64,000 nucleotides of DNA, taken from positions 96,001-160,000 of the forward strand of contig CAVVOB010000013.1 of NCBI GenBank assembly GCA_963749655.1, given 5' to 3'. The DNA comes from Nitrospirota bacterium. Lineage in GTDB: Bacteria; Nitrospirota; UBA9217. Below, one piece after another: positions 52,222 to 63,622 of this stretch (position 1 is the stretch's first letter; each line of letters starts with the position of its first letter). The notes below the pieces were generated by a model. That model saw nothing but the letters and a program-made list of their open reading frames with translations. It made no database searches and was not told the origin of the DNA. Made by a program: the position numbers and the translations under genes.

Positions 52222-52929
52222 TCAGCGGGGTTTCACTGCCCGGTAAATGGTGGCGATCCCCATGGTGAGGGAATCGACGGTGACATCCTCATATCCGCAT
52301 GACAGAATGAGATCCTTGAACTCGTCCGGCGGATAAAAGGCGTTGATGGAGCGGGGCAAGTACAGATAGGGCGCTGCCGTCTTGACGACCGCCTTGCCGA
52401 TCATCGGCATGATCCGGAAGACATACCATTCATACAGCATGCGGAACCAGTGCGATCCCGGCTTGGTCAGCTCAAGGCAGACAAAAACGGCGCCGGGCTT
52501 CAGGACCCGCCAGAGCTCCTTCAGGGCAAGCGAGGTGTCCGGAATGTTTCTCATGCCGAAGGCGACGGTCACCGCGTCGAAGGTGTTTTCCCGGAAGGGG
52601 ACCTGTTTTGCATCGGACAGGACAAAGGAAATGTTCCGAAAGCGGCCGGCGGTCTTTTTACGGGCGCGCTTGAGCATTTCCTCGCAGAAGTCCGCGCCGG
52701 TCACCGTTCCGTCCTCGCCAACCTGGTTGGACAGGAGCATGGCCAGTTCACCGGTTCCGGTGCAGACATCGAGCACGCGGTCGCCCCGATGGATGCCCGA
52801 GTTGACCACGGCGCGCCTGCGCCAGAAGTGGTCGAAGCCGAAGCTGAAACTGCTGCTGAGCAGATCGACGTAGGGCGCGACGGTGGAGAAAATATTTTTT
52901 ATGAAGAGATCACGCTGCTCCAGTGACAT
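52222..52929 (-). CDS. ubiE: UbiE/MenG-family quinone methyltransferase
   Basis: FS.VAP.VD...SFGFDHFWR, VLDVCTGTG, FDAVTVAFGMRN, RVLKPG, Y.YL..SI. Confidence 0.88.
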   Translation of the reverse strand: MSLEQRDLFIKNIFSTVAPYVDLLSSSFSFGFDHFWRRRAVVNSGIHRGDRVLDVCTGTGELAMLLSNQVGEDGTVTGADFCEEMLKRARKKTAGRFRNISFVLSDAKQVPFRENTFDAVTVAFGMRNIPDTSLALKELWRVLKPGAVFVCLELTKPGSHWFRMLYEWYVFRIMPMIGKAVVKTAAPYLYLPRSINAFYPPDEFKDLILSCGYEDVTVDSLTMGIATIYRAVKPR

Positions 52930-53035
52930 GATTCGCCTTTCGCTGTAAATGCGCCCGGCGTACCCGCCGTCATGACGCTTCTGTATTTTCCGGTCTGCCC
53001 TGTCCGTCTCAGGTCCAAGGTGGTGAATCCATAAC

Positions 53036-53153
53036 TGATGAGTCGTAAGAAGTCAAGATTTGCCACAAGAGGCACAAAAAGCACAAAAAGAGTTTTTGAA
53101 AAATTAAACTTTTGTGACTTCTGTGGCTAAAAAAACTTTTTACGAAATCATCA
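53036..53153. mobile_element. MITE-like element with TIRs, TAAC duplication and internal 9-mer inverted repeats
   Basis: TAAC|TGATGAGTCGTAAGAAGT ... ACTTTTTACGAAATCATCA|TAAC; inner GCCACAAGA GGCACAAAA AGCACAAAA ... TTTTGTGAC TTCTGTGGC. Confidence 0.7.
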
Positions 53154-53156
53154 TAA

Positions 53157-53972
53157 CTAGTACACGAACTGCCCCAGAATGATCAGCACCAGCAGCAGGA
53201 ACCCGGCAGCCACGACCGCGAACCCGAAGATGATCCCCATGTCCGTTATCCAGTTCTTCTGCGGCTCCACCATGAGCCGGTCCATCTGCCGTTCTTCGGT
53301 CAGGCGCTGATACTCCAGCGGCCGTTCGTGCTGCAGTTCATGAACACTGACGGCCCCCGTGAAGATGACGGGATCCATCGGGAATTTTTCCGGCCGCATA
53401 TGAGTGTTGAAAAAGTGGATCGTGAAAATAAAGCCCGCCGCGAGGAGCGCCTCGTCGCTGTGGATGACCGTGGCGATGTTGAACACCCAGCCCGGGAAAA
53501 AACGGCCGAAGAACTCCGGGAACCAGAGGAACAGCCCCGACACGCCGATCATTCCCACGCCCCAGAATACGGCCCAGTAGTCGAACTTTTCCCAGTAGGT
53601 CCACCGGTCGAACTGCGGCTTCGGCCCCATCCCGAGGAACCACTTGAAGTTGTTGTAGATGTCTTCGAGGTCCTTGAGCCAGGGCACCATGGACTCGGGG
53701 CCGAGGGGGTTGAACCGCATTTTCCGGACAACCACGATATTGTGCAGGACATAGGCGATATGGGCCGCGAAGTACCCGAAGGTGAGGACCGCGCAGATGC
53801 GGTGGATGAGGGCCGCGCCCTGGTAGCCTCCTTCAAGCCCTACGAGCCAGGCCGCCCACGGCGCCTGGGCGTACTTGATCGGCATGCCCGAGGCAACGAG
53901 GCCGATGAAGCTGAGGGCCATGACCGCGTGCAGGACGCGGTGGTAAGCGTTGAACCGTCGTACCTGTGCCAT
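53157..53972 (-). CDS. Cytochrome b subunit (FdnI/HydC-like, CbcL-type)
   Basis: RF...HRVLH, IHR, WEKFDYWAVFWG, HSDEALLA, IHFFNTH.RP.KFP. Confidence 0.9.
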   Translation of the reverse strand: MAQVRRFNAYHRVLHAVMALSFIGLVASGMPIKYAQAPWAAWLVGLEGGYQGAALIHRICAVLTFGYFAAHIAYVLHNIVVVRKMRFNPLGPESMVPWLKDLEDIYNNFKWFLGMGPKPQFDRWTYWEKFDYWAVFWGVGMIGVSGLFLWFPEFFGRFFPGWVFNIATVIHSDEALLAAGFIFTIHFFNTHMRPEKFPMDPVIFTGAVSVHELQHERPLEYQRLTEERQMDRLMVEPQKNWITDMGIIFGFAVVAAGFLLLVLIILGQFVY

Positions 53973-53973
53973 A

Positions 53974-54957
53974 TTATTCGCCCCCTTTCTTTGTCATACG
54001 TTCTTTCAGCGCGCGATAGGCCCAGAGGAACGTATGGATAAAGAAGAAGGTGAACACGCCGATCAAAAGCGTCGTCATGAACAGGAAGGTGTAGTAGAGA
54101 ATGGGGTATTTCTCCCGGTTGCCCTCTTCCCCGTGAGCGTAGAACTTCGTGAATCCCCGCGTCGCGTGGGCATGGCATTTTTTGCACGTGGCGAGGATAT
54201 TGTGCTGCGCCAGCGGCGACAGGCGGTCGGCGACGGAAACGATCGCATGGGACCCGTGGCAGTCAGCGCATTTCGCCATGGTGGCATAGCCGAGCTCCGT
54301 CACCTTGCCGTGGTAGGTCTTATGATAGGTCTTCATCTGCTCCTGGTGGCAGTTGCCGCATTGCCGGATGAGCGAAAGCTTCCACCGGTCGGTGACTGTC
54401 GGGGGTGCCAGGTGCTCCAGGTGGCAGTCAAAGCAGGTGGGCGCCTTCAGCGTCAGGTCGAGCTGGAGCGCCGTGGCGTGGATGCTGGTCCGGTATGCCT
54501 CATACTCGGCAGGATGACACTGCGAACAGAGAGCAGGGATCTTCTTCCTGTTCGTAGCCGAACGCGTGTCAGCGGAGGGGTAAATGGCATGCGACCCATG
54601 GCAGGTCTGGCACGTCGGCGCCGCGCCATTTCCCGCCGCGGCTTCTTTCCCGTGCACGCTCAGCTTGTACTGCTGAGCCTGCTCTTTCGGGGCGCCTTCG
54701 TTGCCCGTGAAGTGGCAGATGCCGCAGTTCACCTTCGCCGTCTTCCCGTGGGGATATTCCGTTATCCCGAGATGGCATTTGGCGCAGGCCAGGTGTCCGT
54801 GAACCGATTGCTCCAGTGCGGCGCGGTCGACATACCCCTTCGAGCCCTTCTGGCCGTGACAATCGTAACAGATATTCTGTGCGAAAGCGGCGAGGGGGAA
54901 GAGGAGGCAAAGGAACAGGAAAAAAAGTATTAGACGTTTCTTGCCAGGGCAATGCAT
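53974..54957 (-). CDS. Nonaheme c-type cytochrome with C-terminal membrane anchor
   Basis: Signal peptide; nine CxxCH (CYDCH, CAKCH, CGICH, CQTCH, CSQCH, CFDCH, CGNCH, CADCH, CKKCH); C-terminal TM. Confidence 0.93.
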   Translation of the reverse strand: MHCPGKKRLILFFLFLCLLFPLAAFAQNICYDCHGQKGSKGYVDRAALEQSVHGHLACAKCHLGITEYPHGKTAKVNCGICHFTGNEGAPKEQAQQYKLSVHGKEAAAGNGAAPTCQTCHGSHAIYPSADTRSATNRKKIPALCSQCHPAEYEAYRTSIHATALQLDLTLKAPTCFDCHLEHLAPPTVTDRWKLSLIRQCGNCHQEQMKTYHKTYHGKVTELGYATMAKCADCHGSHAIVSVADRLSPLAQHNILATCKKCHAHATRGFTKFYAHGEEGNREKYPILYYTFLFMTTLLIGVFTFFFIHTFLWAYRALKERMTKKGGE

Positions 54958-55270: not shown

Positions 55271-56701
55271 CTACCTGATGATATCCGCCGTGAAGGAATA
55301 GAGCTGCGCGTCTTTCCAGGCGTCCTTGGGCAGGCCTGCCTTGATCGAGACCTGCTCAAGGAACGTCGGCACGTCCCAGTGATATTCCTCGGCAACCTGG
55401 GGGAGGAGGATGCCGCTGTTCCATCCCTTTACCAGGTAGAGTCCGTGCGTCCCGATCCTGATGTTTTTAACGTCCAACAGGAGTTCGAGGGGAGAAAGGA
55501 CTGTGACCTCGACGGACATATCGTTCAGCTCCTGAGGCGTCATGGGTTCGAATCGCGGGTCGCGGGAGCAGGCCGAGACTGCGTTCGTGATGACGGACTT
55601 GAACAGCGGCATGACGGGTTCGATGTTCCCGATGCAGCCCCGCAGGCGCCCGCTGCGATTGATCGTGACAAAGACGGCCCCGTTGGCCGCGAGACGGGCG
55701 TCTTTCGGTTCGAACTGCGGCGTCTTGCCGTGCTTCACATAGCTTTCTATCGTTCGTCTGGCAAGAGCGAGAAGCTCCCGTTGCTGTTCTGCTGTGAGCG
55801 CGCTTTTGTACAGGCCCAGCGCCGCATATCCCACGACCCGGGTACGGTCATTTGTCACATCGCCCGAGTTCGCCGCGTTGAACAGCACGCCGTTGGTTGC
55901 GCCGAGCCTCCGGGCCGCTGCCATGGCAACGAGCACCGCGTACCCGCCGCACATTTCACCCTCGCTGCTCCGGAGGCGCTGCTCCAGGTCTTCCACCGAC
56001 ATCCTGGCCACGGCGTTGGTGACCGTTCCGTCCATTTTTTTCGCTGTTCTGTAATCGTGATAATGGGAGAGGTCCGTGCTCGCGATGATGATCGTCTTCG
56101 GATTTTCAGCGACAATCGACGTAAGGCTGCGGATCAGGGAGTCGAAGGATTCCTGTGTGGGGCGGCCGATCAGGACAGGCACTATGGTGAAGCGCGTCAG
56201 CGTGCGCTGAAGGAACGGCAGCTGCACCTCGATCGAGTGCTCCTTTTCAAAGGCCGAGGTTGACGCCGTGACGCCTGCTTTCGGGTCGATGAGCTTTTTC
56301 GCGAGCCGGTCGTTGATCTTGATCGTTCCCAAAGGGGTCCGCATGCCGCCTGACGCATACACGACAGCGCCGTTCACCTCGGCGTAATGGCTCGGTCCGA
56401 TCAGTATAACCGTATCGACCGGCCGTTCCTGCAGATGGCGGTACGCATAGGCCGCGACCTGTCCGGAATACTGGTACCCGGCATGGGGCGCGATCAGGGC
56501 GATGAGCTTCCCTTCCACGGGGGTCGTCTTTGCGCGGGACAGGAAATCGTCGACCATGGCGGTAAGCGCCTGTTTGTCCGCGGGATAGAAGGCCCCGGCA
56601 ACCGCGGGCTCCTTGACGGTCCCGCCGGCGCCCACAAGCAGGACGGTCAGGACCAGGAGAATGGACAGCAATGCAGCTCCGACAAGGTGCTTACGCTTCA
56701 T
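55271..56701 (-). CDS. amrB: AmmeMemoRadiSam protein B (Memo) - protein A (AMMECR1) fusion with signal peptide
   Basis: PAVAGAFYP, APHAGY.YSG, GPSH, EHSIEVQLPF, STDLSHY; then GAVFVT, LRGCIG, DPRF, LLPQVA; hydrophobic N-terminus. Confidence 0.93.
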   Translation of the reverse strand: MKRKHLVGAALLSILLVLTVLLVGAGGTVKEPAVAGAFYPADKQALTAMVDDFLSRAKTTPVEGKLIALIAPHAGYQYSGQVAAYAYRHLQERPVDTVILIGPSHYAEVNGAVVYASGGMRTPLGTIKINDRLAKKLIDPKAGVTASTSAFEKEHSIEVQLPFLQRTLTRFTIVPVLIGRPTQESFDSLIRSLTSIVAENPKTIIIASTDLSHYHDYRTAKKMDGTVTNAVARMSVEDLEQRLRSSEGEMCGGYAVLVAMAAARRLGATNGVLFNAANSGDVTNDRTRVVGYAALGLYKSALTAEQQRELLALARRTIESYVKHGKTPQFEPKDARLAANGAVFVTINRSGRLRGCIGNIEPVMPLFKSVITNAVSACSRDPRFEPMTPQELNDMSVEVTVLSPLELLLDVKNIRIGTHGLYLVKGWNSGILLPQVAEEYHWDVPTFLEQVSIKAGLPKDAWKDAQLYSFTADIIR

Positions 56702-56828
56702 CTTTTCTCCTCCAGAACCTGGCGGGCTTGTCCTGCTCCTTGGATTTTATCTTTTTTGCAAGAAAACTGATGATGCCGCCTGCGAGGAAGAATCCGAGGA
56801 AGCTCCTTCGTGATATGGTGTCCTTCAT
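56691..56828 (-). CDS. 45-aa twin-arginine (Tat-signal-like) peptide
   Basis: Manual translation MKDTISRRSFLGFFLAGGIISFLAKKIKSKEQDKPARFWRRKDEA*; AAGAGG RBS; overlaps the amrB start. Confidence 0.72.
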   Translation of the reverse strand: MKDTISRRSFLGFFLAGGIISFLAKKIKSKEQDKPARFWRRKDEA

Positions 56829-56849
56829 TGTTCGCCTCTTTTCAAGGGC

Positions 56850-56923
56850 CGTCATTCCGGGCTTGACCCGGAATCCAGTGGCTTTTCGCTAAGTCCTGGA
56901 TTCCTGCTTCCGCAGGAATGACG
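56850..56923. repeat. REP-like palindromic element (copy 2)
   Basis: CGTCATTCCGGGCTTGACCCGGAATCCAG...CTGGATTCCTGCTTCCGCAGGAATGACG. Confidence 0.75.
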
Positions 56924-57006
56924 AGCGATAGGGGTATATTGTTAACCCTCAATTCTCCGCAGCTTACTGCGGAGAGGTATTAGTAGCTTGCAACAAAGCC
57001 CCTTCT

Positions 57007-57981
57007 TCATCCCCACACTCCCGCGATCTTCATGCCGCAGAACCTGCATTTTCCCGACGCGATGTTGTTCTGCTTCACGAAATATCCGGTCCGCTCGATG
57101 ACGATCTTTTTGCAGCGCGGGCAGAGGGTGTTCTCTGCGTCGCTCCGCACATTGCCGATATAGACAAAGCGGAGTCCGGCGTCGAGGGCGGTTGTTCTGG
57201 CGTTTTTCAGCGTCTCGACGGGCGTGGGCGGCAGGTCCTTCAGCTTGTAACCCGGGAAGAACCGGGAAAAGTGAAGCGGCACGTCATTCCCGAGGTTCTT
57301 CACGATCCATTTGCACATGTCGCGGACCTGCGACAGGTTATCGTTCAACGTGGGGATGACCAGGTTCGTGACCTCGAGCCACACCTTGTCCTCCCTGAGC
57401 TGTACGAGGGAGTCCAGAACGGGTCTGAGCCTGCCGCCGCATATTCTTGCGTAGAAGTCCTCGGTAAAGGCCTTCAGGTCCACGTCGGCGGCATCGAGAT
57501 ACCTGGCGAGTTCGTGGAGCGGTTTTTTGTTGATGTACCCGCAGGAATGCATCGTGTTGTTGATGCCGTATTGGCGGGCGATTACCGCGGTGTCGTACAT
57601 GTATTCGTAGAACACCGTGGGTTCGGTGTAGGTGTAGGTGATTGTCCTGCACTGGTAGAACAGCGCCTGGCGGACGACATCCGCGGGAGGAAGGTCCCGG
57701 GAATCCACGTCCTCGGGGTTCGCCTGCGAGATCTCCCAGTTCTGGCAGAACTTGCAGCCCAGGACGCATCCTGCCGTTGCGATCGAAAAGGCGGTAGTTC
57801 CGGGATGGAAATGGAAGAAAGGCTTTTTTTCGATGGGGTCGATGGCCACGGCGCAGGGCTTCCCGTACACAAGGCTGTACAGTGTCCCGCCCTTGTTTAT
57901 CCTGGTCCTGCACCCGCCGATCTGAAATTCCTCGAGCACGCATTCGGTGGGGCAGAGTTCGCATTGGACTGTTTTCGCCAT
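57007..57981 (-). CDS. amrS: AmmeMemoRadiSam radical SAM enzyme
   Basis: CELCPTEC, DPIEKKP, GCVLGCKFCQNWEISQ, TYTEP, VDLK, PLHFSRF, CPRC...CRFC. Confidence 0.94.
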   Translation of the reverse strand: MAKTVQCELCPTECVLEEFQIGGCRTRINKGGTLYSLVYGKPCAVAIDPIEKKPFFHFHPGTTAFSIATAGCVLGCKFCQNWEISQANPEDVDSRDLPPADVVRQALFYQCRTITYTYTEPTVFYEYMYDTAVIARQYGINNTMHSCGYINKKPLHELARYLDAADVDLKAFTEDFYARICGGRLRPVLDSLVQLREDKVWLEVTNLVIPTLNDNLSQVRDMCKWIVKNLGNDVPLHFSRFFPGYKLKDLPPTPVETLKNARTTALDAGLRFVYIGNVRSDAENTLCPRCKKIVIERTGYFVKQNNIASGKCRFCGMKIAGVWG

Positions 57982-57999
57982 TAGTCAGTTAAATGTTTT

Positions 58000-58086
58000 G
58001 CCGCAGAGTTCTCAGAGGACACGGGAAAAAGCTTAAGAATCATTATTCCTGGAGTTTTCCTCTGTGCTCTCAATGTCCTCTGTGGC
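58000..58086. repeat. 9-mer-based inverted-repeat element directly upstream of amrS
   Basis: GCCGCAGAG TTCTCAGAG GACACGGG ... CTCTGTGCT CTCAATGTC CTCTGTGGC. Confidence 0.72.
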
Positions 58087-58125
58087 TAAAGTTTTTCGGC
58101 TTGTCCTGAGCAGGATATGCTGGGG

Positions 58126-58329
58126 TTACTGCTTCTCCTTCCAGTAAGAGCCTTGATGCAGGCTGAGCCCCTTTTTCGAGATCGTGCTTTCGTAGTAGAC
58201 GCGGCGTTTCAGATAATTCTCGATGTCAGGTATCACCGTTTCCCGGAGCACGGAAAAGGCCAGAATCGCAATGACGAGCCCTGCGCTCGCGGAAAGCAAT
58301 ACCTTGAATTTTTGTTTGTCCTTCTCCAT
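58126..58329 (-). CDS. Small single-TM protein
   Basis: MEKDKQKFKVLLSASAGLVIAILAFSVL...GLSLHQGSYWKEKQ; co-oriented within the cluster. Confidence 0.65.
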   Translation of the reverse strand: MEKDKQKFKVLLSASAGLVIAILAFSVLRETVIPDIENYLKRRVYYESTISKKGLSLHQGSYWKEKQ

Positions 58330-58401
58330 AGGCAGCAAATTAAATCTTCTCTCTCTGGTGGTTCTTTGTCAAGCCGCATTTACCGGCCTGCAGGGCCTTT
58401 T

Positions 58402-58467
58402 GCTGGTTCAGGCTTGCAGCCTGAACCAAATGTTAAGGTTTGGTTCAATCTTCAAGATTGAACCAGC
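58402..58467. repeat. REP doublet (REPIN-like)
   Basis: GCTGGTTCAGGCT TGC AGCCTGAACCAAA ... TTTGGTTCAATCTT C AAGATTGAACCAGC. Confidence 0.7.
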
Positions 58468-58544
58468 GTGAGGCTTCGTGTGAGTTTTATGAATGCATCA
58501 ATCTTGAGTGAATCTGGCTAGTCCAAACTTGCCGCATAGTGCAA

Positions 58545-59771
58545 TCATCGACCTGCAGGGCCGTGCTGAAAACAGCGGTTGCAGCGGATGCACTCGGAAA
58601 CAGCCGGATTCGGCTTGTTCGCCACGGGACAATCGGCGCCGCTCGGATATCCCCTTGCCTCTCTTGACAAGGCGCCGGTCAGCGCGGCCACAGGACAAAG
58701 ATACCGGCACCAGAACCGTTCGATGCGCAGGTTCGCGGCAAGGGCAATAACGACGAGGGCCCATGTTAACGCTGTACCGTTGAAGGAAAAGAGCGTCACG
58801 TAGGCCTCGTAGTTCCCGTAGTCCGCGCTGCTGCCTGTGAACGCCAGAACAACGGCGAGGCCGAGCAGGCCATATTTCAAGGTTCTCGCACGGCCGTCCA
58901 GTTCGGGCGGGATTTCCCATTTGCGGAAAGGCAGCCTGCTTATGAACTCGGACAAAGCGCCGAAGGGGCAGAGCCAGCCGCAGTAGAACCTTCCTGCCAC
59001 GATGATAGACGCGAAGGTGCTGATAACGAGCACATACCACAGCATCGACGACGACGGCCTCAGGAGGACAAGGTTAAAGACGTGAATGACGGAGAAGGGG
59101 GCGGAAAGATATAAACCGACGATGATGACGGAAGAGGCCAGGCTGAGGTCCCTCAGCGTCTGAAACTTCCGCGATCGCCGCGTAAGAACATATCCCGCTG
59201 CAGCGGCGATGAACAGGCCTGCGTACCACAGCCAGGCGGTTTCGCGGCGGCCTGTGCCGGCCGGTCCGGAACTGATGCCGAGGACGTCCCTTGCCGCGGT
59301 GCGCGAGGACTCCCTGACCGTATCAGCCAGGGCTTTAACGCTCACCGTGGCGCGGGTGATCCCATCGATGTCGCGGTCCACCTCGAAGGGATCGGTCACG
59401 CTCTTCCCGATGAATTGGCTGAGATAGGACGGAAGCTCGAGATAGCGGACGTAATTCTTCGTCTCCCGGTGCTCGATGATCCTGAGGCCGGCGATCATTC
59501 CCTCGCGGCTCAGGACGACCATGACCTTGATCGGACCTGCATATCCCCTGATCTGCGGCACGATGTCATGGGAGTTGAAGGCGACAGCTCCATCCCCGGA
59601 GCGATAGACCGGTGGGCTGCCCTGCTTCTCTGCAAAACGCGAGTCAGGAGCAGCGATCTTGAGAATACTGCGTTCATCGGGCGCAGGCGCCATGAGGCGG
59701 GACCGGACAAGGTGGCCCGTGATCAGCGAACAGAGGGCAAGGGCTGTAAGGAGGATTCTAATTTTTTTCAT
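58545..59771 (-). CDS. FMN-binding domain + polytopic 4Fe-4S (NosR/NapH-like) membrane protein
   Basis: GYAGPI, IIEHRET, DGITRATVS; GRFYCGWLCPFG, RFWCRYLCP, CP...CIRCNRC. Confidence 0.88.
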   Translation of the reverse strand: MKKIRILLTALALCSLITGHLVRSRLMAPAPDERSILKIAAPDSRFAEKQGSPPVYRSGDGAVAFNSHDIVPQIRGYAGPIKVMVVLSREGMIAGLRIIEHRETKNYVRYLELPSYLSQFIGKSVTDPFEVDRDIDGITRATVSVKALADTVRESSRTAARDVLGISSGPAGTGRRETAWLWYAGLFIAAAAGYVLTRRSRKFQTLRDLSLASSVIIVGLYLSAPFSVIHVFNLVLLRPSSSMLWYVLVISTFASIIVAGRFYCGWLCPFGALSEFISRLPFRKWEIPPELDGRARTLKYGLLGLAVVLAFTGSSADYGNYEAYVTLFSFNGTALTWALVVIALAANLRIERFWCRYLCPVAALTGALSREARGYPSGADCPVANKPNPAVSECIRCNRCFQHGPAGR

Positions 59772-61854
59772 GGCCCAGGACCATCAGCAGCACCAGCGAA
59801 GACGCTTTCAGCGCAATCAGCGACAGGATCGCATTCCCGACTCCGAGAAGGGGCACGAAGAGTATGGATGCGGAGAGGGCTCCGAGAACGGCGCCTCCCA
59901 GGTCCACGGCATAGAGCCGCCCCGCATGCTCTCCCGGCTTCGCGCCTCCGATCAACCGGCTTATGAGCGCGAACTGCATCCCGGCCATGGCGCCGCAGAG
60001 GAGGACCATGACGTAATAGAACAGCTCGAGGGTGAAGAAAAGCGGCGCCACAAGAAGCAGCAGCAGTGAGGCCACGTCCAACGCCTGGACCCACGACTGC
60101 GATCGTTTCAGGAACCGGGCCCCGGAAGCGCCGGCCGCCGTGCCTGCCATGAAGAGGGCAGAGAGGATGCCGATCCGTTCGTAGACATAGCCGAACGACG
60201 CCTGATACATAAGCAGGACAGCCACGTTGAACGCCATGGCGAAGTAGCCGGTGGTGAAAAGGCTGTAATAGAACGTACGCTGTTTTCTCCAGAACAGGAC
60301 AACAGCCGTCAGGAGCAGTGCGGCAAAGGCCGTCAAGACGGGAACTTCGCCTGCGCCGACGATGCTGTTCAGGAACGCGCCGCCGTGCGTCTCCGTCCAG
60401 AGCATGAGGTTGTACAGGTAGGCGACCGGCCTGCGGTCCCTGTTGAGCGTGTCGACCGCGCCGAGCCGTGCAGCGACCATGTCCGTTTTCATCGGGTCGA
60501 AGATGTCCTTGAAGATAAGGGGGTAGAAGTATTCGGTCTGCACGCCCCGTGCGGAAAATCGCATCGCAAGCTCGTCAGGGTCCGCCTTCAGGGGCCTGTC
60601 CGAAGCGTACATGCCTCCGTATTCCTCGGAAGAGAGCGCCACGGTCGGGAAGACCGCCTTCAGCGAGCGGTAAATGGACCCGTTGGCGGCCTGCAGACGC
60701 CGTCCGATGTAGCCGTGGGACGCGGGCAGGGTCAGGGCGAGGACGCCGCCGGGGTTCAGGATCGCGCGGGCCTCGCGGAAAAATTCCACGGTATAGAACC
60801 TGTTGAGATTGGCGGTCGAAGGCTCGGGCAGGTTCAGGATCACGATATCGTACCGTGCTTTTGCAGCCGACCTGACAAAGGACCGCGCGTCCTGCACATT
60901 GACCTTCAGCCGTTTGTCGCCCAGCCGTTCCCGGTCCTCGCGGGTCAGGATGCTGAAGCAGAGGTCGATCATTTTGGGGTCGATCTCGACGAAGTCGACC
61001 TCCACCGCCGGATACTTCAGCAGCTCCCGCGCAACGGCCGCGGACCCGCCGATCAGCAGCACCCGGCCGGGCGACTCATGGAGCGACATCGGCACGTGGG
61101 CCCGCAGTTCCTCGGTCTGCTCATCGGGATAGGAGAACGCGAACCTGCCTGAGGTGAAAAGATTGAGCTGGTCGTCGGAATCGTAGAGCGCGAGCTCTCC
61201 ATACTTCGATTCCACGCGCTGAACCAGATCGAGGTCCTGTTCGGGCGCGTTCTCGACGATCGTCGTGGCCGCAACATGAAAAAGCAGGGGGATGACCAGG
61301 AACAGGAACCTCCGTTTTTTCTTCAGCAGCACGATCGTGAGCAGGATGTTCACGAAGCTGACTGCGGCGACAAGAGCGAAGGCATTGACGTTTCCGGCGA
61401 ACAGCACGGTAAAGAACAGGCCTCCGAGAAAAGAGCCCGCTGCCTCCAGGCCGTAGGTCCTGGCGGTGTCGCCTTTCAGGAAAGCCACGGCCAGCGGAAA
61501 CTGGGTGCCGATCATGAAGCAGACAGGGGCGAGGGCAAGAACAGTGGAGAGCACCGTGGTAGTCAGGGGGACCGTTTCGCCTGCTACCAGGCCGAAGACC
61601 GGGTGAATGAGGCTGATGAACAAGACGGAGGTTTGGGCCAGGAGAGCAACGCCGAAGAAGGAATACTCAAAAGCGTTTCTGTACCGGAACCTCCGGCCGA
61701 AGATGCTGCCGAGTCCGACGGCAAGGAGCCAGACCGCAAGGGTGATGCCGATGTCGAGCTCGTTCCCGGAGAAGACGGTCAAAAGCTGGCGCAAGGCGAT
61801 GATCTGCACCAGGATCGAGGTGAACCCCATTCCGAGAACAGCAAGGATGTTCAT
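59758..61854 (-). CDS. Polytopic membrane protein fused to a spermidine-synthase-like SAM-binding domain
   Basis: N- and C-terminal TM bundles (YGLEAAGS, LYAVDLGGA); central VLLIGG, VEIDP, DAR, YDIVILNLPEP, FYTVEFF. Confidence 0.88.
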   Translation of the reverse strand: MNILAVLGMGFTSILVQIIALRQLLTVFSGNELDIGITLAVWLLAVGLGSIFGRRFRYRNAFEYSFFGVALLAQTSVLFISLIHPVFGLVAGETVPLTTTVLSTVLALAPVCFMIGTQFPLAVAFLKGDTARTYGLEAAGSFLGGLFFTVLFAGNVNAFALVAAVSFVNILLTIVLLKKKRRFLFLVIPLLFHVAATTIVENAPEQDLDLVQRVESKYGELALYDSDDQLNLFTSGRFAFSYPDEQTEELRAHVPMSLHESPGRVLLIGGSAAVARELLKYPAVEVDFVEIDPKMIDLCFSILTREDRERLGDKRLKVNVQDARSFVRSAAKARYDIVILNLPEPSTANLNRFYTVEFFREARAILNPGGVLALTLPASHGYIGRRLQAANGSIYRSLKAVFPTVALSSEEYGGMYASDRPLKADPDELAMRFSARGVQTEYFYPLIFKDIFDPMKTDMVAARLGAVDTLNRDRRPVAYLYNLMLWTETHGGAFLNSIVGAGEVPVLTAFAALLLTAVVLFWRKQRTFYYSLFTTGYFAMAFNVAVLLMYQASFGYVYERIGILSALFMAGTAAGASGARFLKRSQSWVQALDVASLLLLLVAPLFFTLELFYYVMVLLCGAMAGMQFALISRLIGGAKPGEHAGRLYAVDLGGAVLGALSASILFVPLLGVGNAILSLIALKASSLVLLMVLGHEKN

Positions 61855-61921
61855 GGCCGGTAAGACCCTCCGAGAAACACCTTCTCATTATGCTGTGCGC
61901 GGAACCCCCTGTCAAGGGACT

Positions 61922-62016: not shown

Positions 62017-62081
62017 TCTGTTTTTTGATTTATCTTGCAAAAGTTTCGGAGGTTCGATACTATGGCCGAAGGGAGACCTTC

Positions 62082-62948
62082 ATGCAGATCGACAAACATG
62101 TTCACGCTTTAAAAATTCCATTTACGATCACGACGCCCCGTGGTTTCCTGGACCGGTTCGTGTACGTCTATCTCATCTACGGCACGAACGGCGTACATCT
62201 CATCGACACGGGCGTGGCTTCTTCGGAGCAGACGATCTTCAATTATCTCAGGGCCACGGACCGCAAGGTGAGCGACATATCGCTGATCATCCAGACCCAC
62301 GCCCACCCCGACCATATCGGCGCTTCACGAACCATCAAGGGCGAGACGGGGTGCGCGGTCGCGGTCCATCCCGCGGAGAGGGCCTGGATCGAGAACGTGC
62401 AGCTCCAAGCCAAAGAGCGGCCGGTGCCGGGCTTCGATACTCTTGTGGCCGGGTCGCTCGTCGTGAACAGACTGCTGGAGGACGGCGAGGTCTTTGATCT
62501 CGGCTGCGGTCTGAAACTGCAGGTGTTCCATACGCCGGGCCACTCGAAAGGATCGATCTCCATACTGCTGCTCGGATACATGTCCCTTTTTTCCGGAGAC
62601 GCTGTACCGGTTCCCGGAGAAATGCCGATCTACGAGGATGTAGCTGTGTCGGTCGCTTCGATCAAGAAGCTGCAGGCAGTGAAGGACCTGCGCTACCTGC
62701 TTTCCTCCTGGGACGACCCGCGCAAGGGAGACGAGGCTTACGAGCGCATGGATGAAGGGCTTGCCTACATTCAGCGTGTGCACGACGCGGTCAGAAAGTG
62801 TTCTGCCGGCGACGCGAAATCGGACCTCCCAAAACTCACGCCCTTGGTGCTGACGGAATTGGGGCTCCCTCCGGAACTCGCAAATCCTCTCGTAGCGCGG
62901 ACCTTCGCCGCCCATCTCGAGGTGCGGGACCGAAAAGATATAATCTAA
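62082..62948 (+). CDS. MBL-fold metallo-hydrolase
   Basis: LIDTG, THAHPDHIG, HTPGHSKG, FSGDA; promoter TTGCAA-17 nt-TACTAT upstream. Confidence 0.88.
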   Translation: MQIDKHVHALKIPFTITTPRGFLDRFVYVYLIYGTNGVHLIDTGVASSEQTIFNYLRATDRKVSDISLIIQTHAHPDHIGASRTIKGETGCAVAVHPAERAWIENVQLQAKERPVPGFDTLVAGSLVVNRLLEDGEVFDLGCGLKLQVFHTPGHSKGSISILLLGYMSLFSGDAVPVPGEMPIYEDVAVSVASIKKLQAVKDLRYLLSSWDDPRKGDEAYERMDEGLAYIQRVHDAVRKCSAGDAKSDLPKLTPLVLTELGLPPELANPLVARTFAAHLEVRDRKDII

Positions 62949-63127
62949 GAACAGTCTTCTCATCCCCATTAATCATGCAGCCCCATCTCTCCCGGGTCGG
63001 ATCGTGATGCCTGCATTGATAACGGCGGACCAGGGTACGCTCAGGAATCCATCAATTTCTATTTACAAGCCGGTCAGTGCCCTGTTATACTCGTAGAAAC
63101 ATGACCACGTCAAGGAGAGCGGCGCGA

Positions 63128-63622
63128 ATGTATTATGAAAATGTGTTCAGTTCGCTCCAGAAGAATAGAATTCGATACGCCGTCGCCGGCGGCGTCGCTC
63201 TTGTGCTTCATGGGGTGGTCAGGTTCACGGCTGACCTTGATCTGATCGTGGACCTTCAGCCGGACAATCTCAGACGGTTTGTCCACGCTCTGACGGAACT
63301 GGGTTTTCTGCCGAGAAATCCGGTGAAAGCGGAGCTAATTCTTGACCCCGCGATCCGGGATGGATGGAAGCGGGAAAAGGGGATGGAGGTTTTTTCATTC
63401 GTTGATCCGAAACAACCGATGTCCCTCATCGATGTGTTTATCGAGGAAAAGATCCCCTTTCAAGAGGTCATGCAGGAGCTCGTACAAATGGAAGCAAAGG
63501 GAATTTCGATCCCGGTTGTTTCTCTTCGGCATTTGAAGAGGCTCAAGCAAGCTGCGGGCAGGCCGCAGGACCTTGCGGATATAGAGGCGATCGAGGCAAT
63601 GGAAAAACCGGTGGAGGAGTGA
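63128..63622 (+). CDS. Nucleotidyltransferase-family protein (possible TA component)
   Basis: YAVAGGVALVLHG..RFT.DLD, L..LK..AGRPQD.ADI. Confidence 0.82.
   Translation: MYYENVFSSLQKNRIRYAVAGGVALVLHGVVRFTADLDLIVDLQPDNLRRFVHALTELGFLPRNPVKAELILDPAIRDGWKREKGMEVFSFVDPKQPMSLIDVFIEEKIPFQEVMQELVQMEAKGISIPVVSLRHLKRLKQAAGRPQDLADIEAIEAMEKPVEE

Follow-up and report, generated by a model that had tools for sequence, protein, structure and literature searches.

The window analysed here is a stretch of 64,000 nucleotides from a Nitrospirota bacterium (contig CAVVOB010000013.1, positions 96,001 to 160,000). It contains a cluster of six ORFs, all located on the minus strand. A first-pass annotation, made without database searches, had proposed these six co-oriented genes, and this part of its claim held, since both the ORF coordinates that we checked and the domain matches confirmed it. 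From the upstream end, the features are the following:

61887..61915, minus strand: possible promoter-like site upstream of the first gene (11/12 match)
59758..61854, minus strand: gene of the SpeE-like membrane protein, 698 aa, with PF01564 Spermine_synth at residues 249-373
58545..59771, minus strand: NapH/NosR-like gene, 408 aa, with FMN_bind at residues 76-154 and two Fer4_5
58126..58338, minus strand: gene of the small TM protein, 70 aa, one TM, belonging to no family
57007..57981, minus strand: amrS, 324 aa, TIGR04337 at 375.6 bits (cut-off 220)
56691..56855, minus strand: RR peptide ORF, 54 aa, containing SRRSFLGFF
55271..56701, minus strand: AmrB-AmrA fusion gene (amrBA), 476 aa, TIGR04336 at 278.2 bits and TIGR04335 at 175 bits

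The SpeE-like and NapH/NosR-like genes overlap by 14 nt. The RR peptide ORF overlaps amrBA by 11 nt, and we infer that the two are translationally coupled; the fused amrBA ORF lies 306 nt downstream of amrS. The RR peptide likely starts at an internal ATG at 56828, giving 45 aa, because AAGAGG is found 6 nt upstream of it and the upstream ATG is buried in a hairpin. For the small TM protein (67-70 aa), the N-termini of the orthologues point to a likely start at the ATG at 58329. The next minus-strand promoter-like site lies past amrBA (54991-54964), and none is internal to the cluster. The site upstream of the first gene is no more than suggestive, the region containing three such sites in total, which is not above the 2.2 ± 1.7 found in shuffles. 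The six-gene arrangement itself is not due to chance, because both small ORFs are conserved families and several families of the window's own phylum possess the block.

The AmmeMemoRadiSam core and its membrane partners

The three core domains of the cluster (AmrA, AmrB and AmrS) are intact in sequence. As in the canonical AmmeMemoRadiSam trio (TIGR04335 AmrA, TIGR04336 AmrB, TIGR04337 AmrS), the cut-offs are passed, the genes are adjacent and the Cys, His and Asp ligands are kept. Indeed, the fusion exceeds both curated cut-offs (26 bits for TIGR04336 and 99 for TIGR04335). Residues H73, H105, D210, H213, C251 and C356 are invariant among 33 AmrBA sequences, and AmrS retains an invariant CX3CX2C motif and invariant C7/C10/C14/C24, C72/C76/C79, C287 and C312 among 31 homologues. 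On the other hand, the window genes differ from this trio in that AmrB and AmrA are fused and appear to carry an export signal, AmrS is N-terminally truncated, the missing AmrS piece seems to have a 45-aa gene to itself, which also encodes a Tat signal, and three membrane proteins are added. The same genome also possesses a dispersed, signal-less housekeeping set (AmrS on contig C29, AmrB on C24 and AmrA at C13:263 kb). By NCBIfam, the closest characterised radical SAM relatives of AmrS are the PflA-type glycyl-radical activases (TIGR02493, 1e-13), but AmrS scores far under their cut-offs and has its own N-terminal 4-Cys and C-terminal Cys motifs; no glycyl-radical enzyme gene was found within the cluster. 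The term AmmeMemoRadiSam is rare in the open-access literature that we searched, where it appears in no title or abstract.

The SpeE-like protein has 7 + 7 TM helices. A spermidine-synthase-like domain of the class I SAM fold (PF01564, E 3.2e-22) separates TM7 from TM8 and covers approximately residues 200-500. Searched against the PDB, a profile of 29 orthologues retrieved the SpeE protein of T. thermophilus (3anx, E 1.7e-40), and its TM part matched nothing. From TM calling on these orthologues with an N-in model, which gave 19.1 K+R per protein in the inner loops versus 2.2 in the outer loops, the SpeE-like domain is predicted to face the periplasm. In spermidine synthase, the GGGDG and D-x-x-D-P motifs contain acidic residues that are catalytic. 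The consensus of the 29 orthologues replaces the acidic residues of GGGDG and D..DP by IGGS..G and LNLP.P, at positions where 3anx reads GGGEG and IDLTDP. With these residues lost, and with 140.7 bits against a cut-off of 472 (PRK03612) and 78 against 249.55 (TIGR00417), the protein fails both criteria for a spermidine synthase. The protein nevertheless resembles the membrane-fused spermidine synthases (PRK03612 / NF037959, 'fused MFS/spermidine synthase'): the adenosyl-contacting positions of the SpeE fold are conserved and the N-terminal TM block is homologous to PRK03612 over residues 24-373. It differs from PRK03612 by a second 7-TM block following the domain, by the predicted outward orientation of this domain and by the absence of the acidic residues. 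The TM part resembles MFS proteins only weakly (a precomputed PF07690 match in 4/120 homologues, and in 0/29 orthologues at E ≤ 0.05). Databases annotate this family as 'spermidine synthase' or hypothetical, and nothing else. We infer that the domain handles SAM or its by-products.

The NapH/NosR-like protein comprises an N-terminal signal anchor, FMN_bind (2.6e-11), Fer4_5 (1.5e-16), two CX3CP motifs and a C-terminal 4-Cys motif. A141-T142 (a flavinylation-type motif), C264/C268, C355/C359 and C381/C394/C397/C400 are invariant in 16 orthologues. The protein shares the architecture of NosR (NF046105, 85 bits against a cut-off of 1000) and of NapH (TIGR02163, 52.7 against 213) and is a member of neither family. 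It meets the definition of the NapH-like flavinylated systems (NosR, PceC/RdhC; Meheust et al. 2021, PMC8238504), namely a PF12801 membrane Fe-S protein in which a signal or TM segment is followed by FMN_bind, and then by the NapH-like TM Fe-S domain. This architecture is described as a modular conduit carrying electrons outward or inward, most partners of which are unknown, and in NosR/PceC-type proteins the FMN domain is extracytosolic, behind an N-terminal anchor (PMC8238504). What sets the window cluster apart from these systems is the partner, a radical SAM/Memo/AMMECR1 set; the main text of PMC8238504 contains 0 mentions of Memo, AMMECR1, radical SAM or spermidine. The window genome, 86.6% complete, yielded no ApbE; the gene is present, unlinked, in 5/5 cluster-bearing relatives tested.

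Export signals and the two small ORFs

The AmrB-AmrA fusion starts with a hydrophobic extension of about 29 aa. A hydrophobic N-terminus is shared by 113 of its 120 closest homologues, and a lipobox-like Cys is present in 57. We infer that this extension is a Sec-type export signal or a signal anchor, the localisation of the protein being itself an inference. On the contrary, the window AmrS has neither a signal nor the N-terminal motif of its family: its match to TIGR04337 spans model positions 11-333 and its ORF starts 6 residues before the first Cys motif. Split-type AmrS start in this way, right before the Cys motif, whereas the housekeeping AmrS paralogues of the same genomes start with the N-terminal motif in cis.

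The RR peptide, the product of a conserved gene of 40-45 aa, displays the layout of a Tat substrate (i.e., an S/T-R-R-x-F-L type motif and an uncharged h-region, meeting the sequence criterion for such substrates), followed by a tail that resembles the N-terminal motif of full-length AmrS. In an alignment of 18 orthologues, R7, R8, A36 and W39 are invariant and F10 and F38 near-invariant. The family has 91 small-protein cluster representatives in a library of 1.84 billion proteins, among which 86 carry the RR motif and 84 a C-terminal [FYW]W[KR]. Aligned with hhalign, the RR-peptide profile matches the N-termini of full-length AmrS end to end (95.5%, E 1.6e-8; 96.2%, E 2.7e-9). At E ≤ 0.001, all the hits of an unbiased HMMER search with the same profile were small proteins and none was a full-length Tat-AmrS, so that the case for homology is carried by hhalign, by the motif that both share and by gene order. 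Within the phylum, the RR ORF lies directly 5' of amrBA in 20/23 loci, and its presence matches that of a split-type AmrS exactly in 5/5 genomes checked. In other phyla no such peptide exists and the signal is fused to AmrS instead. From sequence alone, we thus infer that the Tat signal of AmrS has been detached onto its own gene; Tat-dependent translocation is likewise inferred. The genome has a TatC family match of 113.6 bits, the best alignment of which reads through 4 stops.

The small TM protein is single-pass, with an ambiguous orientation (charges are present on both flanks) and a conserved C-terminal tail whose end motif also resembles the AmrS N-terminal motif. With hhalign, this protein matches AmrS N-termini only weakly (11% probability, E 0.0026, 15 columns in register). 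Both small ORFs look like detached N-terminal pieces of AmrS, a resemblance which the first-pass annotation had missed and which for the small TM protein amounts to weak similarity only.

We also surveyed AmrS in 80 fused-AmrBA loci of many phyla. Its N-terminus was visible in 41 of them (L060, L069 and L083 were judged by eye): 10 show an RR Tat motif, 7 a KR variant, 7 a hydrophobic or lipobox N-terminus and 17 none. Signal-bearing AmrS adjoins signal-bearing AmrBA in 24/24 loci, and 0/11 loci with a signal-less AmrBA and a visible AmrS have an AmrS signal. Signal-less AmrS was found next to signal-bearing AmrBA in L110 and L111; L100 and L112 are less certain cases of the same pairing. All Fe-S ligands are invariant in the exported AmrS forms too, which is consistent with Tat export. 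The seven orthologues with Sec-like or lipobox N-termini, rather than Tat signals, are hard to square with the export of an Fe-S enzyme.

Co-occurrence across genomes

The first-pass annotation had proposed co-occurrence of the accessory and amr genes as a check, and this check is positive in the phylum and in others. Among 300 sampled genomes of the phylum, close orthologues of the NapH/NosR-like protein are present in 15, all of which have the SpeE-like protein (15/15) and nearly all the exported AmrB-AmrA (14/15). An exported AmrBA orthologue and the SpeE-like protein occur together in 19/300 genomes, AmrBA without SpeE-like in 3/300, SpeE-like without AmrBA in 6/300 and neither in 272/300. 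In other phyla, a SpeE-like gene lies at most 10 kb from a signal-bearing AmrBA in 23/~50 loci and from a signal-less AmrBA in 0/27. The SpeE-like/NosR-like pair is apart from the amr genes in 4 to 5 genomes, and co-occurrence at the genome level persists even where the genes are unlinked.

Orthologues of the small TM protein are found in 11/15 NosR-like orthologous loci, and also 5' of amrS in L170, L190 and L196. L038-type clusters have no NosR-like gene at all. The NosR-like and small TM genes form an optional add-on, which the first-pass annotation had not recognized, to a wider core consisting of the SpeE-like protein, AmrS and AmrBA. Other phyla substitute NapH-ferredoxin or DsbD-type membrane proteins for the NosR-like gene: Acidobacteriota loci encode a NapH-ferredoxin protein with Tat-signal DUF362 proteins, and in L061 and L064 a DsbD_2 gene adjoins amrS. 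In L100, SpeE-like, FMN_bind and NapH-like parts form a single 1208-aa fusion. Electron conduits hence recur in differing forms.

Proposed mechanism and rival explanations

We favor the reading that the cluster is an extracytoplasmic variant of AmmeMemoRadiSam with a detached Tat signal, to which, judging from sequence alone, we give a probability of about 0.6. Every module would lie outside the membrane; localisation and SAM supply are inferred or unknown, as is the substrate. In this view, Fe-S clusters would be inserted into AmrS in the cytoplasm, the RR peptide tail would then be bound by AmrS and stand in for its N-terminal element, and both would leave through Tat as a hitchhiker complex. 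After export, the RR peptide may either stay uncleaved and serve as a membrane anchor, or remain bound as a small subunit. Outside, AmrS and the exported AmrB-AmrA would act on an unknown envelope substrate. The NapH-like flavoprotein, drawing on the quinol pool or on a cytoplasmic donor, would bring electrons to an outward-facing FMN and, by our inference, on to AmrS rather than AmrB. The 14-TM protein would expose an adenosyl-binding domain devoid of the acidic residues for aminopropyl transfer, its likeliest role being SAM delivery or the uptake of 5'-deoxyadenosine or methionine. The small TM protein possibly tethers AmrS near the flavoprotein.

The first-pass annotation had also read the cluster as a radical-SAM machine at the outer face of the membrane, to be refuted by cytoplasmic AmrS and AmrB-AmrA, by an inward FMN domain or by accessory genes not linked to amr genes elsewhere. 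Our analysis supports this reading, and none of the three was met. The linkage held; the conserved AmrBA signals, the Tat signals in cis on AmrS orthologues and the RR peptide match favor a non-cytoplasmic location, although localisation is inferred; and the outward FMN domain is favored, by analogy with NosR/PceC-type proteins (PMC8238504), by the N-terminal signal anchor. The handling of SAM or by-products and the supply of electrons to AmrS remain inferences. Several points count against the favored reading: no source of SAM is known to us in the periplasm, the FMN domain is possibly not reducing enough for a radical SAM cluster, and some AmrS orthologues have the Sec-like or lipobox N-termini described above. 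The loci where signal-less AmrS adjoins signal-bearing AmrBA, the lack of full-length Tat-AmrS among the HMMER hits, the weak AmrS similarity and ambiguous orientation of the small TM protein, the missing ApbE, the stops in the TatC alignment and the weak MFS likeness also speak against it.

In known Tat hitchhikers (HybO-HybC, DmsA-DmsB, PaoABC), a signal-less cofactor protein is exported bound to a partner with an RR signal. The window AmrS is similarly signal-less and would leave bound to such a partner, but this partner is a peptide of about 40 aa, combining a signal and a short motif from the N-terminus of its passenger, and not a folded subunit. No such hitchhiker partner is described in the open-access literature searched, and to our knowledge no Tat signal peptide gene has been reported to borrow the N-terminal motif of its passenger. 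A signal peptide that is its own gene and borrows a piece of the passenger protein is possibly a new export device. Moreover, the cytoplasm is regarded as the only place for radical SAM enzymes, since SAM, low-potential reductants and Fe-S assembly occur in it. The sequence evidence points to a widespread family in which a radical SAM protein has a Tat signal and its two partners have Sec or lipoprotein signals; its ties to an outward SAM-fold domain and to transmembrane electron conduits imply that the supplies are delivered outside.

A bolder reading can be proposed, in which we place rather less than even confidence. Radical SAM catalysis would occur in the periplasm, where the Fe-S enzyme would be brought by a detachable Tat signal peptide of 40 aa, which would also complete the fold of the enzyme. 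A dedicated 14-TM protein with an outward-facing SAM-binding domain would feed it SAM and would thus be a bacterial SAM exporter or presenter; reduction would proceed through the flavinylated NapH-like conduit, and the target of the AMMECR1/Memo pair would be a molecule of the cell envelope. Conservation of AMMECR1 and MEMO1 extends to humans, and no biochemical function is agreed upon for them. With an exported bacterial version, the candidates for a substrate are narrowed down to envelope molecules, and the bolder reading, if true, would give a first handle on what the ancient AmmeMemoRadiSam trio does.

The strongest rival, which we consider unlikely, is a pathway spanning the membrane with AmrS inside. 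The two small membrane proteins would hold AmrS at the inner face, where it would act on a precursor that is cytoplasmic or embedded in the membrane; the intermediate would be exported or flipped by the 14-TM protein, and then finished outside by the exported AmrB-AmrA with electrons from the flavoprotein. This explanation is favored by the lack of a signal on the window AmrS ORF itself, by the ambiguous orientation of the small TM protein and by the L110 and L111 pairs; it also needs neither SAM nor a low-potential reductant outside. Against it stand the canonical S/T-R-R-x-F-L motif conserved in 86/91 RR-peptide representatives and the RR/KR Tat-type motifs in cis on AmrS in 17 loci of other phyla, in otherwise equivalent clusters. 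Moreover, no Tat signal is known to serve as a tether at the inner face.

A second rival, very unlikely, considers the RR peptide as a RiPP-like substrate, a role that the small TM protein might share. AmrS would modify the aromatic C-terminal motif of the peptide in the cytoplasm, Tat would export the product, and AmrB-AmrA would process it further into a cofactor-like or signalling peptide. Indeed, a small conserved peptide adjoins a radical SAM gene, with A36 and W39 invariant and F38 near-invariant near its C-terminus, and peptide-processing systems are said to contain a related radical SAM domain (PMC7159879). On the contrary, housekeeping AmrS natively begin with the motif of the peptide in cis, split-type AmrS lacks exactly that segment, and other phyla have no peptide and fuse the signal to AmrS.

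Finally, a chance adjacency of two or three unrelated units (SpeE-like plus NosR-like, spurious small ORFs, and amrS-amrBA) could draw on the separation of the SpeE-like/NosR-like pair in some genomes and on the L038-type clusters without a NosR-like gene, but we consider it highly improbable, and it is disfavored by the co-occurrence of unlinked genes, the L100 fusion of SpeE-like and NapH-like parts, the conservation of both small ORFs, and the overlapping genes with no internal promoter-like site.

Export signals on AmrS and AmrBA

The simplest reading of the six-gene cluster, to which we give a probability of about 0.6, is that it encodes an exported variant of the AmmeMemoRadiSam trio (AmrA, AmrB and the radical SAM protein AmrS), localisation being inferred from the sequence. 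The component proteins all come from known families. Pfam/NCBIfam searches place a Spermine_synth domain at residues 249-373 of the hydrophobic 698-aa protein (SpeE-like), and FMN_bind plus two Fer4_5 domains in the 408-aa protein (NosR-like or NapH-like). The 324-aa AmrS matches TIGR04337 (375.6 bits, for a cut-off of 220), and the 476-aa AmrBA carries both TIGR04336 and TIGR04335 in a single fusion. No Pfam/NCBIfam family was matched by the 70-aa ORF (small TM protein) or by the 54-aa ORF (RR peptide).

When species-representative genomes were scanned using an alignment of AmrBA, at least 80 fused-AmrBA loci from many phyla were recovered, mostly at 33-42% identity, and the six window proteins were compared with 80 AmrBA loci by tblastn. 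AmrS was found in 42 of the 80. The N-termini of AmrBA, judged by script and by eye, bear a hydrophobic signal in around 50 of the 80 loci, frequently with a lipobox, and no signal in 27 (26 by script and L082 by eye); they are unclear or truncated in L045 and L072, and ambiguous in L098 and L112. For 23 loci, all of the signal-bearing class, the SpeE-like gene lies within 10 kb of AmrBA (>= 100 bits in 20); this is so in none of the 27 signal-less loci. The first-pass annotation had proposed to test whether the accessory genes accompany signal-bearing AmrB; across phyla, this held for the SpeE-like gene, while NosR-like matches were weak and limited to five of the 80 loci.

Our key result is that, in other loci, AmrS itself is likely exported, as inferred from the N-terminal signals read upstream of the AmrS matches (for L060, L069 and L083, the call was made by eye).

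N-terminal classes of AmrS, and presence of a SpeE-like gene (>= 100 bits) beside it
Canonical RR Tat motif, 10 loci (L043, L049, L054, L056, L057, L060, L069, L076, L078, L083): SpeE-like in 8 of 10
KR variant, 7 Bacteroidales-type loci (L080, L081, L084-L087, L091): SpeE-like in 6 of 7
Hydrophobic or lipobox N-terminus, 7 loci (L040, L042, L048, L059, L061, L063, L064): SpeE-like in 3 of 7
No signal, 17 loci: SpeE-like in 1 of 17

Every signal-bearing AmrS (24/24) adjoins a signal-bearing AmrBA, and none of the 11 loci combining a signal-less AmrBA with a visible AmrS shows a signal on AmrS. The lone signal-less AmrS locus with a SpeE-like gene, L038, is of the split type, i.e., its AmrS has no N-terminal motif of its own. 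All Fe-S cysteines are invariant in exported and non-exported forms.

One MAG chromosome carries at L095:8978-11383 (+) an 801-aa ORF in which AmrS, AmrB and AmrA are fused without any signal, a Rosetta-stone joining of the entire trio.

The RR peptide and the N-terminus of AmrS

Full-length AmrS proteins, with or without a signal, have a short motif ahead of their first Cys motif (alignment A5), and housekeeping AmrS paralogues start with it. This motif is missing from the window AmrS and from its orthologues, which begin six residues ahead of the first Cys, in agreement with a TIGR04337 match that begins at model position 11. The C-terminal end of the RR peptide is this very motif; R7, R8, A36 and W39 are invariant among 18 orthologues. 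In two profile-profile comparisons, the RR peptide aligned over its whole length with AmrS N-termini, RR matching RR and the tail matching the motif (95.5% probability, E 1.6e-8; 96.2% probability, E 2.7e-9).

The RR peptide is a genuine protein family. Its profile, searched against 1.84 billion representatives, gave 93 matches at E <= 0.001, of which 91 are proteins of 34-104 aa; the RR motif is present in 86 and the aromatic C-terminal motif in 84. This search, at that threshold, did not recover full-length Tat-AmrS, and the homology between the RR peptide and AmrS therefore rests on hhalign, on the motif and on gene order. The RR ORF is found immediately 5' of amrBA in 20 of 23 loci of the phylum; L186 and L195 lack it, and L197 has a degenerate version. 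Three genomes have RR-amrBA without an adjacent amrS, and each encodes a split-type AmrS elsewhere (60-72% identity); in the two genomes that lack the RR ORF, AmrS is of the housekeeping type only. In other phyla, searching the surroundings of amr genes for small ORFs with RR or [FYW]W[KR] gave only chance-like matches, except at L038, which was also the sole tblastn match of the RR peptide among the 80 fused-AmrBA loci. As to the degenerate frame, it lies 5' of amrBA at L197:2860-3160 (-), with a recognisable tail motif, an internal stop and an altered RR.

In the window, the first-pass placement of six co-oriented ORFs held, with exact coordinates; all six are on the minus strand. There is a 14-nt overlap between the first two genes and an 11-nt overlap between the RR ORF and amrBA, the AGGAG of amrBA being located within the RR ORF. 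An internal ATG of the RR ORF at 56828 is preceded by AAGAGG, which makes a length of 45 aa probable for the RR peptide, as inferred from sequence alone. A strong promoter-like site stands immediately 5' of the first gene and the next one on the same strand is found only past amrBA, a layout that is no more than suggestive. The spacer between amrS and the RR peptide (56854-56919, -) contains two similar perfect 8-bp hairpins, neither followed by a T-run, and the RR ORF has its upstream ATG inside the second:

56919-56912/56907-56900 (-): stem of the first hairpin
56874-56867/56861-56854 (-): stem of the second hairpin

The small TM protein, usually encoded just 5' of amrS, also ends with a motif similar to the AmrS N-terminal motif; the profile similarity is weak (11% probability, 15 columns). 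Genomes carrying a NosR-like gene encode it in 13 of 15 cases, and it was not found by tblastn in five NosR-less loci (L191-L194, L198). That the small TM ORF could be read through its stop codon into amrS was rejected, as the gap ranges from 17 to 557 nt and the frames vary among orthologues.

Putative membrane partners and the proposed reading

Hydropathy averaged over 29 orthologues of the SpeE-like protein gives seven TM segments, a soluble domain and seven further TM segments. With the N-terminus inside, the K+R count per protein is 19.1 in the inner loops and 2.2 in the outer loops. K/R-rich loops flank the soluble domain, one before TM7 and one after TM8, and the domain is therefore predicted to face outward. 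Its SpeE fold is clear (3anx, E 1.7e-40), with the Gly-rich loop retained, as are the Glu that follows strand 2 and the Asp that precedes the aromatic residue. The acidic residues of GGGDG and D..DP, which have a catalytic role in spermidine synthases, are missing; thus, the domain is expected to bind an adenosyl ligand and not to transfer aminopropyl groups. The membrane part found no support as an MFS transporter (0 of 29 orthologues at E <= 0.05).

The NapH-like protein combines a signal anchor with an FMN_bind domain, where A-T is invariant at the flavinylation-type position, and further carries a pair of CX3CP motifs and a C-terminal four-Cys motif. This architecture is that of an extracytosolic flavin coupled to a transmembrane Fe-S conduit, with mostly unknown partners (Meheust et al., PMC8238504). 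A Myxococcales MAG encodes, at L100:11450-15076 (+), a 1208-aa fusion of the SpeE-like membrane part with FMN_bind and NapH-like Fer4_5 domains, next to amrS and a lipobox-bearing AmrBA; it serves as a linkage argument only, because TM counting by hydropathy fails on its Ala-rich helices. Acidobacterial clusters contain a NapH-like protein of 637 aa that includes ferredoxin domains, and a pair of DUF362 proteins with N-terminal RR motifs, flanking Tat-AmrS:

L049:7601-8656: RR-type DUF362 protein flanking Tat-AmrS
L049:13813-14826: RR-type DUF362 protein flanking Tat-AmrS
L054, L056, L057, L076: counterparts of these two

In L061 and L064, a DsbD_2 protein lies directly 5' of amrS. A census of 122 neighbouring ORFs from 20 loci ranked DUF362 first (10), followed by ferredoxin-type (4), Fer4_5 (3) and DsbD_2 (2) proteins. 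Electron conduits recur in differing forms beside amr genes, electron transfer itself being inferred.

Under the exported-variant reading, the radical SAM enzyme would bear its own Tat signal in most phyla. In the phylum of the window, the Tat signal and the first structural motif would have split off as a separate gene of 40-45 aa; the signal and motif being on a separate gene, the AmrS core would exit by hitchhiking on the N-terminal piece detached from it. Electrons would come from the flavoprotein, or from its analogues in other phyla, and the outward SAM-fold domain on its 14-TM body is the only candidate for delivering SAM outward or returning a by-product. Electron supply and SAM or by-product handling remain inferences, as do the substrate and what the small TM protein does.

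Neither this assembly, nor export signals on the radical SAM enzyme, nor a detached Tat signal was found in the searchable literature, which did not cover Burroughs et al. 2019 (J Biol Chem 294:10211); likewise, the literature searched, including a passage in PMC10924467, gave nothing relevant on a Tat-exported or periplasmic radical SAM enzyme. Burroughs et al. reportedly extends the gene contexts of Memo and may mention secreted forms; it is the paper likeliest to contain prior art and the main caveat on novelty. We see a substantial chance that this is categorically new biology.

Distribution in the phylum and genomic setting

In 300 genomes of the phylum, searched three times, full-length NosR-like orthologues (46-62% identity) are present in 15, the SpeE-like protein (E <= 1e-60) in 25 and the exported-type AmrBA (E <= 1e-80) in 22. 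AmrBA and the SpeE-like protein occur together in 19 genomes, AmrBA only in 3, the SpeE-like protein only in 6 and neither in 272; five of the six SpeE-only genomes have a distant SpeE-like class (29-33% identity). Genomes with the NosR-like protein have the SpeE-like protein in 15 of 15 cases and AmrBA in 14 of 15. The co-occurrence check proposed in the first-pass annotation therefore held in the phylum for the SpeE-like and NosR-like genes; the 300 genomes share ancestry, hence no p-value is given. Carriers span at least 11 families and the spread is patchy: among 63 same-family genomes there are four full-length orthologues, and neither the NosR-like protein nor a close AmrBA orthologue was found in the 14 same-genus genomes searched. 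Acquisition of the cluster from another phylum was rejected, as the Nitrospiraceae genome carrying L038 belongs to the window's own phylum (two phylum searches returned identical matches).

Within 20-kb regions around the 15 NosR-like genes, where several contigs stop inside the block, a neighbouring SpeE-like gene is seen in 12 and a neighbouring small TM gene in 11; amrS occurs in 8, plus one distant partial copy, and amrBA in 7. When the amr genes are not adjacent, exported AmrBA is encoded elsewhere in four of five such genomes.

A second, longer SpeE-like class (about 740-775 aa, 29-33% identity) was seen in G436, G439, G445, G561, G597, G509:C16 and G514:C86, mostly genomes without exported AmrBA. 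Some orthologous clusters have inserts that separate the NosR-like gene from the small TM gene or from amrS:

L145:10935-14126 (+): two MacB/FtsX-type permeases and an RHS-repeat protein
L138:4244-5359 (-): 371-aa ORF without family
L141:4969-5745 (-): 258-aa ORF without family
L137:10847-12373 (-): AMP-binding enzyme, opposite strand

In its own genome, the window cluster is an additional copy beside a dispersed, signal-less set, with a second AmrS on C29, a stand-alone AmrB on C24 and AmrA elsewhere on C13. ApbE (PF02424) was not found in this genome, which is 86.6% complete, and is present in all five cluster-bearing relatives tested. The TatC match, at C18:11038-11718 (-) with 113.6 bits, crosses three TGA and one TAG in its best alignment and contains a shorter, nested open-frame match; assembly frameshifts or a broken gene are both possible.

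A trio of genes with its own promoter-like site in front lies downstream of amrBA, and is also found 3' of amrBA in L134, the closest relative, and in no other locus. Another pair diverges from the cluster:

52222-54957 (-): multihaem cytochrome c (327 aa), cytochrome b561/DUF4405 membrane protein (271 aa) and UbiE-type methyltransferase (235 aa)
62025-63622 (+): metallo-beta-lactamase-fold protein (307 aa) and DUF6036/AbiEii-like nucleotidyltransferase (181 aa)
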